This document shows, one piece after another, positions 1,492 through 3,590 of a DNA stretch of 64,000 nt. The notes under the pieces are model-generated. The model worked only from the letters and a program-made list of their open reading frames with translations, did not search any database and was not told the origin of the DNA. The translations under genes and the position numbers were made by a program. Position 1 is the first letter of the stretch, and each line of letters opens with the position of its first letter. The stretch comes from Candidatus Babeliales bacterium (lineage in GTDB: Bacteria > Babelota > Babeliae > Babelales > JANWKD01), in the NCBI GenBank assembly GCA_963762115.1, contig CAVXJH010000003.1, forward strand, positions 512,001-576,000, written 5' to 3'.

Positions 1492-1674
1492 GTATTCTTT
1501 CTTTTATGGAGAAATCGGTTGTTTTGCACAAATAAGCTTGACACCATATCTTCGAAAATACAATAGGTGCTTTTTTAAAAGCAAGAAAAAGACCTTAACT
1601 TTAAACTAAACGAATTATAAGATAAATTTTTCATTTTTAATTTGGCCTAAAGCAAAAAACTTATAAACAAGAAT

Positions 1675-1705
1675 TGTCATTGCGAGCGCATGCGTGGCAA
1701 CCCAG
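1675..1705 (+). repeat. TGTC/CGTC-type REP-like palindrome, solo copy
   Basis: tgtcattgcgagcgcatgcgtggcaacccag; same tag, stem and CCAG tail as the other copies. Confidence 0.85.
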
Positions 1706-1951
1706 TCTATAAAATAAATTCCATATATTATTGATACCATTTCCACATCTTTGTTTTTAGTATTTTTTAATATTATACGGCCCTATGCGGGCAGCACAAA
1801 GGTATTGCGTGCCCAATACCTTTGATACAAGGGCCTCCCCCTTCGCTTATCCACGCCTTCCGGCTTGGCAAGCTTGTATGTTAAATCAAAATGATTTTAA
1901 AGCTAAATTTTGTTAATTTATGATCAGTTGTTTTGAAATTAATTGTTTGAG

Positions 1952-2092
1952 AAGCTGATAGATCTCGTGTCAAGCTTGGTCTCAAAGGACCGTGTCATAG
2001 TTTGAGACTATCAGCTTATACAAAAATGACCTCGAACAATCACTAGAGACGTATCAAGTACATACGATCTCGCATGTCTACAAGCCAGAGGT
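1952..2092 (+). ncRNA. IS110 bridge RNA (target-binding and donor-binding loops)
   Basis: Stem aagctgatagatctc/gagactatcagctt encloses guides tgtcaagct (1968-1976) and gtcatag (1994-2000), which match the target. Stem acctc/gaggt encloses acaatcact (2036-2044) and tacaag (2079-2084), which match the donor junction. Confidence 0.85.
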
Positions 2093-2096
2093 ATTT

Positions 2097-3038
2097 ATGA
2101 AAAATATATCAAAAGTATTTATAGGTGTCGATATTTCAAAAAACACTTTAGATGTTTATATCCATCCAATAGGAAAATCTTTAAAAGTATCAAACTCAGA
2201 AGTTGGAATAACGGAGATCATTAAAGAATTAGTTAAATATGATATCGAACAAATTGCATGCGAAGCAACTGGTGGGTATGAAAAATTACTTGCTCGAATA
2301 TTAAAAAAAAATTGTTATTATCTTTGGATCATCGATCCAAGAAGAATAAAAGGCTATATTGTTGCTAGTGGCTGCAAAAGCAAAACGGATAAAATTGATG
2401 CTCGAAAAATTGCTGAATTTGCTTCTAAAAATTCTCCTGATTATGAGATAATGAACAAAAGCGAAAATCAAGAAAAATTACAAGCTTTGGTCAATCGTAA
2501 AAATGACTTGGTAAAATTTTTAGTTGCCGAAAAAACAAGATCTAAACATCCATCTCATGCATTATATGCATCAAGTATAAAGAAATTTATCAAAATCTTA
2601 GAGTGCGAAATCAAATCAATTGATTTAAAGATACAAGATTTAATTCAGCAAGATGAAAAATTAAATACAAAATCAAAAATTTTGGAGTCAATTCCAGGAA
2701 TAGGCAAAACTTCAGCTGCAACATTATTATCATTCGTTCCTGAACTTGGTCAAATAAGTAATAAAAAAGTATCAGCACTCATTGGTGTTTGTCCTTATGA
2801 GAATGAAAGTGGAAGTTATAAGGGTAAAAAATTCATCAGAGGTGGAAGAACTATTCCAAGAAATATGCTTTATATGTGTGCATTAACAACTATTAAATAT
2901 CATCTCCCATTAAAGGAACTTTACGATCGTTTAATAACTTCTAAAAAACCTTTTAAAATAGCTATCGTAGCTATTATGCATAAACTTATTGTGATTGCTA
3001 ATTCTTTACTAAAAAAAGGTGAATTATGTAAAGCTTAA
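2097..3038 (+). CDS. IS110-family transposase/recombinase
   Basis: GVDISK, EATG, KTDKIDA, SIPGIG, ESG (catalytic Ser), RGG motifs. Confidence 0.95.
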   Translation: MKNISKVFIGVDISKNTLDVYIHPIGKSLKVSNSEVGITEIIKELVKYDIEQIACEATGGYEKLLARILKKNCYYLWIIDPRRIKGYIVASGCKSKTDKIDARKIAEFASKNSPDYEIMNKSENQEKLQALVNRKNDLVKFLVAEKTRSKHPSHALYASSIKKFIKILECEIKSIDLKIQDLIQQDEKLNTKSKILESIPGIGKTSAATLLSFVPELGQISNKKVSALIGVCPYENESGSYKGKKFIRGGRTIPRNMLYMCALTTIKYHLPLKELYDRLITSKKPFKIAIVAIMHKLIVIANSLLKKGELCKA

Positions 3039-3064
3039 TATTGTTTAGCTTTATTAAAAAATAT

Positions 3065-3070
3065 TTGACT
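3065..3070 (+). promoter_or_regulatory. Outward-facing -35 box of the IS110 circle-junction promoter
   Basis: TTGACT; on circularisation it lies 17 bp from TATGTT (1877-1882). Confidence 0.75.
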
Positions 3071-3247
3071 TTTAACACAATCACTATGGCGGACAGGCCA
3101 ACCCTTCGAAGCGTTAGCGTAGTAGGGCCGCGCGAAAACGTGAATTCTAAATCTTGATGCAGAATGCATCAAGATTTAGAATTCACATCGCCACTACCGG
3201 ACTAACCTATATTTATAAATTTTCTTTAGAATTTCATTTATTTGGGC

Positions 3248-3292
3248 AATGAAAAAGGGCTTGCTCAATATTTGGACAGGCCCTTTTTCATT
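3248..3292. terminator. Intrinsic terminator-like hairpin
   Basis: aatgaaaaagggc...gccctttttcatt inverted repeat. Confidence 0.6.
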
Positions 3293-3306
3293 TTTAAAAA
3301 TCAATA

Positions 3307-3447
3307 TTATTTATTTTTGCTGCCAAAATAATAAACTACCGGGGCTACAACAGCAGCCGTAACAACCATAGCTCCTGCAATAATTTTTTTTGAATGTGTT
3401 TGGCAAAAGGTTTGATGAGAAATAGCAGCATCATATCCCTCCTTATG
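3307..3447 (-). pseudogene. 3' remnant of a C-terminally membrane-anchored protein gene
   Basis: Open frame HKEGYDAAISHQTFCQTHSKKIIAGAMVVTAAVVAPVVYYFGSKNK* followed by a terminator; 5' part replaced by the IS200 fragment. Confidence 0.45.
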
Positions 3448-3452
3448 ACCAG

Positions 3453-3590
3453 ATCAAAGGAAAAAGTGCTATTAAAGTTGCACGGCAATTTGAGGTAAAA
3501 CTAAAAACTTTAATGGCAAACGATTTTTGGGCTAGAGGTTATGTCATTTCGACCGTTGATTTTAAAATTGGGCAAATATACAATTTCTAA
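3453..3590 (+). pseudogene. IS200/IS605 TnpA (Y1 transposase) fragment
   Basis: IKGKSAIKVARQF ... FWARGYVISTV, typical of the TnpA C-terminal half; degenerate, with an early stop. Confidence 0.75.

Follow-up and report, generated by a model that had tools for sequence, protein, structure and literature searches.

A predicted bridge RNA of an IS110-group insertion sequence matches the element's own ends and a host REP

Introduction

An IS110-group insertion sequence lies here against a repeated host hairpin (REP), and its long non-coding left end contains stretches that match both its own termini and that hairpin. The question raised by this locus is whether RNA from the left end steers the element's own insertion, as happens in IS621, and what occupied and unoccupied REPs indicate about target choice. 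The window is a stretch of 64,000 nt, with positions numbered from its first letter; the host genome is small, with 34% G+C. We put the probability at roughly 90% that the element is a canonical bridge-RNA insertion sequence of the IS110 group, present in five copies, whose left-end RNA is the predicted bridge RNA. The element type itself is already known, and the element is no surprise since its mechanism has been established for IS621.

An IS110-group element in five near-identical copies

The element, its cores and its arms are located in the window as follows.

1875..3085, + strand: IS110-group insertion sequence of 1,211 bp, right core copy included; five copies
1873..1874, + strand: left CT core copy (the empty site carries CT once)
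3084..3085, + strand: right CT core copy (copy flanks and empty-site comparison)
1866..1872, + strand: left target arm (LT), TGGCAAG (window sequence and copy flanks)
3086..3094, + strand: right target arm (RT), ATGGCGGAC, 3' part of the REP; T3087 marks occupied REPs
3077..3083, + strand: left donor arm (LD), ACAATCA, in the right end (copy ends)
1845..1873, + strand: host REP hairpin with 5' arm GCTTATCCACGCC, loop TTCC and 3' arm GGCTTGGCAAGC
2097..3038, + strand: recombinase gene, 313 aa (Pfam domains and IS621 alignment)

The body of the element begins at position 1875 with TGTATG, and the RT stretch adjoining the right core reads ATGGC (3086-3090). The genome holds five near-identical copies in total, differing by two SNPs across 5 x 1,211 bp, each with an intact recombinase ORF; a check for differing ends among them found the same ends in 5/5. 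The left non-coding end is 222 nt long and the right one 47 nt, a long-left pattern seen in all 14 mapped orthologues. One copy, the fifth, lies inside another, rve-type insertion sequence, and three intact paralogues of that interrupted element give the empty site as ..GCCTTTG-CT-ATGATGG.., with a single CT. This exact empty site demonstrates precise insertion at the CT core.

Judged by sequence, the recombinase is of the DEDD/Ser type and homologous to that of IS621. Pfam places an N-terminal RuvC-like DEDD domain (PF01548, E 5.2e-18) at residues 9-149 and a C-terminal Tnp domain (PF02371, E 3.9e-15) at residues 194-276. A phmmer comparison matches residues 8-308 to the solved IS621 structure (PDB 8wt6), a distant match at E 1.1e-32 in which DEDD and Ser-Gly are in place: D12, E56, D98, D101 and S238 align with the catalytic residues described in the available IS621 text, and the catalytic pair S238-G239 stands opposite S241-G242. 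The protein had been called compact, but 313 aa is not notably so beside the 326 aa that the same text gives for IS621.

A conserved RNA fold in the left end

The left end is predicted to fold into a 5' hairpin followed by two stem-loops with internal loops, with fold z-scores of -3.2 and -3.4. The predicted parts are the following.

1892..1941, + strand: 5' stem-loop of the bridge RNA (MFE fold only; layout as in the available descriptions of IS621 relatives)
1953..2016, + strand: target-binding stem-loop (folds and pair counts in orthologues)
1953-1961 with 2008-2016: target loop helix P1
1963-1966 with 2004-2007: target loop helix P2
1978-1981 with 1988-1991: target loop apical helix
2029..2092, + strand: donor-binding stem-loop (folds and pair counts in orthologues)
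2029-2033 with 2088-2092: donor loop closing helix
2046-2054 with 2062-2071: donor loop apical helix

Evidence for this fold came from orthologues collected in a phylum-wide genome search; a related-locus search of contigs gave one relative. RNAalifold, applied to the first MAFFT alignment, recovered 10 pairs only; every one belonged to the donor stem-loop, and the target stem-loop went undetected. The structure was therefore written from the single-sequence fold and tested by pair counts against slid and shuffled controls. In a structure-blind MAFFT alignment of 17 same-phylum orthologues, paired cells made up 89.6%, compared with at most 40.9% when partners were slid, and both-side changes occurred in 25/31 pairs, a level reached by 0/500 shuffles. 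Compensatory changes are present in all four helices across the 17 orthologues: helix 1 is 94.5% paired, with both-side changes in 10 of its 13 pairs, and such changes affect 5/5 pairs of helix 3 and 7/9 of helix 4. A wider alignment gave 83.2% paired and both-side changes in 19/31. The MFE fold also pairs positions 1942-1952 with the region of the left donor guide, and such pairing would compete with the donor loop.

An Rfam scan of positions 1500-3500 (E up to 10) returned no relevant family and no match of any kind in the left end; its matches were chance-level miRNA and leader models on the flanking palindrome. A covariance model, R1, matches only the five copies in its own genome, each in the left end. 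This model also detects RNA at four loci (three elements) outside its building set, and gave no match at loci L035, L028 and L026 (E up to 1). On plasmids from Nostoc, Sphingobium and Vibrio, representing three other phyla or classes, R1 matches lie directly upstream of IS110 genes in 3/3 tested. By Pfam, the recombinase family is shared with the IS1111 group, in which a seekRNA or bridge RNA lies in the right end and for which available descriptions give extended right ends together with long subterminal inverted repeats. An RNA in the right end, as in IS1111, was ruled out here, with a right end of 47 nt and R1 matches in the left end of 5/5 copies.

Guides that match the donor and the target

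Four guides are predicted within the internal loops.

1968..1976, + strand: left target guide (LTG), UGUCAAGCU; 8/9 identical to LT plus core
1994..2000, + strand: right target guide (RTG), GUCAUAG; pairs with CTATGGC through 6 Watson-Crick pairs and 1 U:G
2036..2044, + strand: left donor guide (LDG), ACAAUCACU; 9/9 to positions 3077-3085
2079..2084, + strand: right donor guide (RDG), UACAAG; exact complement of CTTGTA, 6/6

When checked on the window letters, all four were found where the original prediction had put them and with the matches it gave. The single true mismatch of the LTG to the REP is a U facing the target's G at position 3. Pairing by the native RTG covers 7 positions in this element and, on our reading, 7-9 in several orthologues. 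Chance matches were gauged with 20,000 dinucleotide shuffles of the 222-nt left end, which reached the observed match 213 times for LT, 2,384 times for RT, 27 times for LD and 1,506 times for the right donor arm (RD); all four at once were reached by 0/20,000.

Target analyses used 14 of the 17 orthologues; G030, G013 and G026 were left out because the motif rules could not place both ends. Among these 14, the mean LTG-LT match was 5.00/7 for cognate pairs versus 2.12 for non-cognate pairs, and the mean RTG-RT match was 3.93 versus 2.29; each difference was reached by 0/20,000 permutations, counts that overstate independence because the orthologues are kin. For RDG-RD the observed value was reached by 1,512/20,000 permutations; RD is so nearly invariant that covariation cannot be demonstrated. 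Automated LDG scoring fails in three of the 14, with loops that lack CT in G119 and G118 and a mis-registered loop in G029.

A further link between guides and DNA comes from the two predicted handshake bases. U2001 follows the RTG and is expected to pair with A at donor position 7; C2085 follows the RDG, and its expected partner is G at target position 7. Across the 14 orthologues, the base next to the RDG can pair with target position 7 in 13/14 and with its own donor in 1/14, and the base next to the RTG can pair with donor position 7 in 13/14; this level of pairing was reached by 0/20,000 permutations. As predicted from sequence, the handshake bases obey the published IS621 rule. Since the left-end loops match the element's own ends and a host repeat, the RNA likely steers the element's own insertion, as in IS621. 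The original prediction of an IS621-like bridge system is thus supported by covariation, the handshake rule, compensatory changes, the recombinase alignment and the R1 matches.

A predicted split junction promoter and a Shine-Dalgarno-like sequence within the donor loop

Three further features concern expression of the element.

3065..3070, + strand: -35 half (TTGACT) of the predicted junction promoter
1877..1882, + strand: -10 half (TATGTT) of the predicted junction promoter
2088..2091, + strand: Shine-Dalgarno-like GAGG (sequence), within the 3' strand of the helix that closes the donor loop

The predicted promoter is split between the two ends, as is characteristic of the IS110 group. Recomputing the TTGACT/TATGTT spacer gave the 17 bp claimed earlier, made up of 15 nt to the core end and 2 nt of the left end. 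Automated picking in 14 orthologues gave spacers of 17 bp in 11 and 16 bp in one, with two mis-picked. The placement of the ribosome binding site in the closing stem of the donor loop likewise stood: GAGGU (2088-2092) is the 3' strand of the helix, pairs with ACCUC (2029-2033), and precedes the ATG at 2097 by 5 nt. Read by eye, the alignment has GAGG at matching columns in 14/17 orthologues. Among the papers listed by a literature search, none was, judged by title, on occlusion of a Shine-Dalgarno sequence by the donor loop.

Occupied REPs differ from unoccupied REPs at one base

[quoted passage not shown] The REP flank is repeated both in the element's own genome and in a sister genome, G110, in which the flanking genes have 67% identity and the intergenic region is not conserved; 14 REP copies of G110 were sampled in place of orthologous empty sites. 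The common form of the REP reads CT-ACG or CT-TCG, and CT-ATG occurs in occupied copies only. CT-ATGG is found at the base of the hairpin in 4/4 REP-borne copies, but in 0/9 unoccupied REPs of the same genome and 0/14 of those sampled in G110, so that a single base, right-target position 2, tells the 4 occupied REPs (T) from the 23 unoccupied ones (C). T is the base that pairs with the guide A. The claim that the guide is programmed against the host REP is borne out for the occupied form, CT-ATG, but not for the common form. That the other genomic copies sit in the same REP is true of four of the five, which occupy a guide-matched site, while the fifth lies outside any REP. A search of the genome found no unoccupied site within one mismatch of the guide-coded 14-mer, and no site at which both arms have at most one mismatch.

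Left flanks vary between copies at 1-3 of ~32 positions and the insertion sequence at no more than 1 of 1,211, and this greater divergence of the flanks means that the REPs predate the insertions. Creation of the T by insertion itself was considered less likely, given that the donor arm has G at this position, that the published mechanism confines exchange to the core, and that T was already present at the only site whose sequence before insertion is known.

A fifth copy at a half-matching site

The fifth copy occupies a coding-sequence site with no REP. Its CT-ATGAT pairs with the RTG through 6 Watson-Crick pairs and one G:T (RT arm ATGAT, compared with the guide-coded ATGAC), and its left arm matches the LTG at 1/7 positions only. 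Either insertion does not strictly depend on pairing by both arms, or this event took another route. The copy fits the half-match behavior reported for IS621 in the available text of a preprint (10.64898/2026.08.31.748434), sharing with it a site that has the CT core and one arm only. As far as that text goes, its genome re-analysis scored donor-arm half matches only, and RT-only half matches were excluded because the IS621 RTG is 4 bp. By contrast, it is the right target arm that matches here, and the case is a fixed natural insertion rather than an assay read.

Alternative explanations

The T shared by occupied REPs could be a hitch-hiking marker of a single founder insertion if duplication or gene conversion between REPs, rather than RNA-guided choice, had carried the four REP-borne copies along with their REP flanks. 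One founder fits neatly with the distribution of T described above, and copy C6b shares more than 45 nt of additional right flank with the unoccupied REP C3:69064. However, left flanks that differ at 1-3 of ~32 positions become fully divergent beyond the REP, and three copies share just 7-12 nt of right flank past the T, a length insufficient for ordinary homologous recombination. The fifth copy represents true transposition, at a site where T pre-existed in three unoccupied paralogues. Moreover, orthologue G149, with the RTG GCCAUAG as a perfect complement, is likewise inserted at CT-ATGGCGGAC. Founder spread is thus very improbable. A milder possibility accepts a canonical bridge-RNA element and holds that it is now immobile in this genome, with cognate sites exhausted and copies static. 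While the absence of unoccupied sites within one mismatch of the guide-coded target is consistent with this idea, five intact ORFs with so few SNPs argue against it, and the half-match copy in another insertion sequence indicates movement beyond cognate sites; we regard immobility as unlikely, though less so than founder spread.

The location of the Shine-Dalgarno sequence in the donor-loop closing helix (P4) led to the proposal that the left-end RNA mainly controls recombinase translation in cis, the guide matches being by-products of terminal sequence conservation. This proposal draws on the position of GAGG in the 3' strand of P4, so close to the ATG in most orthologues, on the compensatory changes in 5/5 pairs that maintain P4, and on a regulatory role of IS110 small RNAs proposed earlier for ISPpu9, as cited in the available text of Durrant 2024 (PMC11208160). 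It offers no account of why LTG and RTG change along with flanking host DNA outside the element, or of why the handshake base varies in step with target position 7, and regulation may coexist with guiding. As a replacement for guiding, we consider cis control the least probable of these explanations.

Comparison with other IS110-family elements

The closest parallels to this bridge-RNA element are with IS621 (PMC11208160; PMC11208158; PDB 8wt6). Both have a CT core and a long left and short right end, and both have a REP hairpin as their natural target. The available text also describes for IS621 a 5' hairpin and two loops, whose guides LTG, RTG, LDG and RDG agree in order and strand sense with those found here, a right donor arm identical to TGTAT here, the same handshake rule and a split sigma-70-type junction promoter. 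The element differs from IS621 in its target, its left donor arm and the phylum of its host. A further difference is the native RTG, given as 4 bp for IS621 in the available preprint text (10.64898/2026.08.31.748434) and covering 7 positions here, although some orthologues with longer RTGs were already noted in Durrant 2024 (PMC11208160).

Similarities also extend to ISPpu10 and ISPpu9 of Pseudomonas putida (10.64898/2026.03.19.712850; PMC12288879). According to the accessible portions of these reports, all copies lie in one repeated intergenic sequence with a GC-rich stem-loop on the 5' side of the insertion point; in the present element, LT forms part of the 3' arm of the REP hairpin. Unlike ISPpu10 and ISPpu9 as described there, the present element has an off-target copy in a non-REP coding sequence.

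Proposed mechanism and implications

If the element behaves like IS621, its excision would produce a circle in which the right end meets the left end, and the circle junction would assemble the TTGACT-17-TATGTT promoter, which may drive transcription of both bridge RNA and recombinase. The RNA would be held by a recombinase tetramer, with the target loop pairing to both strands of the REP site TGGCAAG-CT-ATGGC and the donor loop pairing to ACAATCA-CT-TGTA at the circle junction. Ser238 would then cleave beside CT, and the circle would enter the site by strand exchange. After top-strand exchange, U2001 and C2085 may pair with the partner DNA, favoring insertion.

If the Shine-Dalgarno sequence is indeed hidden in the closing helix, bridge-RNA folding and recombinase translation would be mutually exclusive for each transcript, and a single transcript would act as a switch between enzyme production and guide production. 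It is a tentative and rather doubtful proposition that the locus jointly holds such a built-in switch and a natural record of specificity, consisting of the single T/C base and one half-match escape. As fixed natural examples, the insertions would illustrate behaviors mostly shown in assays, namely low mismatch tolerance beside the core and half-match off-target insertion.

A literature search found no paper on an IS110 element in the host phylum, for which the name 'Dependentiae' was guessed. The predicted anatomy would extend bridge RNAs to a phylum of small, AT-rich genomes. In a clade of at least 14 orthologues, the donor is nearly constant and the target loops have been rewritten to differing host repeats. 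Native RTGs over 7-9 positions exceed the 4 bp that the available text gives for IS621, and RTG extension has been reported to improve specificity. This natural reprogramming series could serve to check published rules on guide length, wobble tolerance and handshake bases.

Recombinase, copies and element ends

On sequence evidence, the insertion sequence at w1875-3085 (w, window position) belongs to the canonical bridge-RNA elements of the IS110 group. The single ORF of the w1866-3090 region (w2097-3038, 313 aa) carries both IS110-family recombinase Pfam domains, PF01548 (E 5.2e-18) and PF02371 (E 3.9e-15). Searches with phmmer against PDB sequences matched it to IS621 (8wt6, E 1.1e-32, residues 8-308 to 9-315) and ISCro4 (9t56, E 1.7e-32). 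Residues D12, E56, D98, D101 and S238-G239 align opposite IS621 D11, E60, D102, D105 and S241-G242, whose roles are stated in Hiraizumi 2024 (PMC11208158).

The 1.2-kb element is present five times in its own genome (1.53 Mb, seven contigs), with identical ends and just two internal SNPs (w2878 in one copy, w2169 in another). Four copies share the flank ..CTTCGCTTATCCACGCCTTCnGGCTTGGCAAG-CT-(element)-ATGGCGGA... The fifth (contig 6, ~253962-255186) has flanks unrelated to these and sits inside a second insertion sequence, whose 331-aa ORF has rve-type integrase domains. In all three intact copies of this second insertion sequence elsewhere, the left flank runs straight into the right flank with no base between them; the empty site was therefore ..GCCTTTG-CT-ATGATGG.., with CT once, and the element, with one core copy, thus measures 1,211 bp. 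The target, TGGCAAG-CT-ATGGC, and the circle donor, ACAATCA-CT-TGTA, were reconstructed correctly in the original prediction.

The second insertion sequence (PF13683, PF00665) has four copies, at C5:85127-86340 (L037), C3:347806-348878 and C3:197761-198823 and split on C6 at ~253367-255777; the IS110 element breaks one copy within the codons for ..AFA/MMD... Directly downstream of the element in the window, w3706-6288 encodes an 860-aa ORF of mostly ankyrin-like repeats with near-identical internal units.

The predicted bridge RNA and its guides

Single-sequence folds of the left end (z -3.2 and -3.4) gave three structural elements, the same 5' hairpin, target and donor stem-loops as in the architecture described for IS621 relatives. 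By the rule in Durrant 2024 (PMC11208160), every guide takes in the core.

Features of the left end
w1873-1874, second CT core copy, in the left flank (empty-site comparison)
w1892-1941, 5' hairpin (single-sequence fold)
w1953-2016, target stem-loop, LTG and RTG on opposite sides of its internal loop (single-sequence fold)
w1968-1976, left target guide (LTG), match 8/9
w1994-2000, right target guide (RTG), to CTATGGC with 6 Watson-Crick pairs and 1 U:G
w2029-2092, donor stem-loop, LDG and RDG on opposite sides of its internal loop (single-sequence fold)
w2036-2044, left donor guide (LDG), match 9/9
w2079-2084, right donor guide (RDG), match 6/6

The guides lie where they had originally been placed. 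When matches were counted anywhere in dinucleotide-shuffled left ends (n=20,000), without demanding the correct loops, the observed match was reached 213 times for LTG, 2,384 for RTG, 27 for LDG and 1,506 for RDG, and never for all four together.

A phylum-wide protein search across 261 genomes detected relatives at 30-76% identity in 22 of them, the element's own genome included. Left ends of 17 distinct orthologues were aligned by MAFFT without structural information, and pairs were counted for the element-derived structure. In this alignment (A2), 89.6% of cells pair (slid controls, at most 40.9%), and both partners have changed in 25 of the 31 pairs, a count reached by none of 500 shuffles; compensatory changes occur in all four helices. 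A wider alignment, A1, gave 83.2% paired and both-side changes in 19/31 pairs; RNAalifold on A1 recovered the donor stem-loop alone and did not predict the target stem-loop.

In the element's own genome, R1, a covariance model derived from A2, matched the five copies and nothing else (127.7 bits each). It also found four loci, representing three elements, outside its training set (L025 and L036, L024, L027; 82, 57 and 40 bits), and gave no match at L035, L028 or L026. Three plasmids were tested, and on each R1 matched immediately 5' of a gene annotated as an IS110 transposase (44 bits in Nostoc, 36 in Sphingobium, 35 in Vibrio); among plasmid-borne proteins, even the nearest do not exceed 40% identity. 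Judged by these matches, the RNA family extends beyond the host phylum.

In the MFE fold, AUUGUUUGAG (w1942-1952, upstream of the target stem-loop) pairs with CUCGAACAAU (w2031-2041), which covers the 5' side of the helix closing the donor loop and the first bases of LDG; the donor guide would be hidden by this pairing. Eight close orthologues keep ATTGTT, and LDG is invariant in them, so that covariation is no test of the pairing.

Covariation with host DNA

Both ends could be placed from conserved terminal motifs in 14 of the 17 orthologues (G030, G013 and G026 were dropped), and every loop was scored against the arms of each orthologue, taking the best register.

Guide-arm matches (of 7; cognate mean, non-cognate mean, permutations reaching the observed value; independence is overstated by these counts, the orthologues being related)
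LTG with left target arm: 5.00, 2.12, 0/20,000
RTG with right target arm: 3.93, 2.29, 0/20,000
LDG with left donor arm: 5.36, 4.24, 1/20,000
RDG with right donor arm: 4.29, 3.99, 1,512/20,000

The LDG signal stands despite failure of the automated scoring in three orthologues; the RDG comparison carries no information, given a right donor arm with almost no variation. The scores indicate that the target guides covary with their targets, which are host sequence outside the element, and kinship of the elements does not explain this.

Hiraizumi 2024 (PMC11208158) describes bases just 3' of RTG and RDG that base-pair to the non-cognate DNA at its position 7. Complementarity between the base after RDG and target position 7 is seen in 13 of 14 orthologues, and between this base and its own donor in one; the miss, G064, is due to the automated register, and the homologous register fits. 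In 13/14 the base after RTG complements donor position 7. No permutation (0/20,000) reached this complementarity, a result that likewise overstates independence. In the element, the predicted pairs are C2085 with target G7 and U2001 with donor A7.

In the G064 orthologue (L010), the left terminus including the core is tandemly duplicated (18 bp, CT-TGTATGTTAAAAATAG, twice), as in no other orthologue.

Predicted expression signals

Joining the ends would set TTGACT (w3065-3070) 17 bp from TATGTT (w1877-1882), as originally claimed, and this predicted promoter agrees with the one reported at the IS621 junction. The automated pick gave a 17-bp spacer in 11/14 orthologues and 16 bp in one; in G119 and G118 the script took a later TTGACT, and the earlier one gives 17. 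The proposed transposase ribosome-binding site in the donor-loop closing stem was also located: the 3' strand of that helix (P4) contains GAGG (w2088-2091), 5 nt upstream of the ATG. Read by eye, GAGG occupies the same alignment columns in 14/17 orthologues, and P4 has compensatory changes in 5/5 pairs. A Shine-Dalgarno sequence in P4 might couple RNA folding to translation; a literature search for such coupling to the donor loop gave nothing on topic.

Target choice

The left flank folds as a hairpin, GCTTATCCACGCC / TTCC / GGCTTGGCAAGC, whose 3' arm is the left target arm, with the core at its base. This host hairpin repeat (REP) has nine unoccupied copies in the genome (at most 4 mismatches to the 20-mer around the core), seven with the same predicted hairpin, and many copies in the sister genome. 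Use of a REP resembles that of E. coli REPs by IS621 and the repeat-borne insertion of ISPpu10 in P. putida (10.64898/2026.03.19.712850). In the sister genome (G110, loci L048-L061), which belongs to the same genus, the REP left arm w1841-1874 recurs at 100% identity in no fewer than six places, and the IS110 orthologue resident there (76% aa identity) targets another repeat, TATGCTC-CT-CAGGATG. A near-perfect long palindrome (w3139-3189, GTGAATTCTAAATCTTGATGCA..TGCATCAAGATTTAGAATTCAC) lies within a ~135-nt module (~w3088-3222) that recurs at 77-79% identity beside other REP copies (C3:527774-527907, C6:430282-430414); Rfam gave only chance miRNA-like matches to the palindrome.

All four occupied REPs read CT-ATGG, and CT-ACG, CT-ACA or CT-TCG stands in all nine unoccupied copies and in 14/14 sampled from the sister genome. 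The T is predicted to pair with an A of RTG, and every unoccupied site in the genome differs from the guide-coded 14-mer at more than one position. Our reading is that the element uses rare T variants only and appears to have saturated them, in line with reports that IS621 tolerates mismatches poorly. The same pattern could come from a founder insertion spread by gene conversion, which we consider very improbable: the flanks are far more diverged than the elements, the G149 orthologue, whose RTG matches perfectly, sits at the same CT-ATGGCGGAC, and the T was already in place at the one site with a known pre-insertion sequence, that of the fifth copy. These data favor the use of pre-existing T variants.

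The expectation that other copies would sit in the same REP held for four of the five and failed for the fifth, in the second insertion sequence. Its site, GCCTTTG-CT-ATGAT, makes 6 Watson-Crick pairs and one G:T with RTG, and its left arm matches LTG at 1/7 positions only. Among 148,942 CT sites in the genome, the right arm is within one mismatch of the guide-coded arm in 1,865 (1.25%; 338 under a stricter form of the match), so a random CT insertion would rarely look like the fifth copy. A 2026 preprint (10.64898/2026.08.31.748434) states that the core plus one matching arm is enough for IS621 insertion, and by analogy the fifth copy appears to be a natural instance of this half-match behavior, with the right target arm as the matching one. 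A single-copy orthologue in G029 (L015) matches LTG at 5/7 positions in its left arm and the right guide at 2/7, and may be a left-arm-only half-match insertion.

Both the observation and the interpretation in the original prediction hold, as judged from guides, ends, structure, covariation and handshake bases. The added interest is modest and lies in a natural record of specificity.
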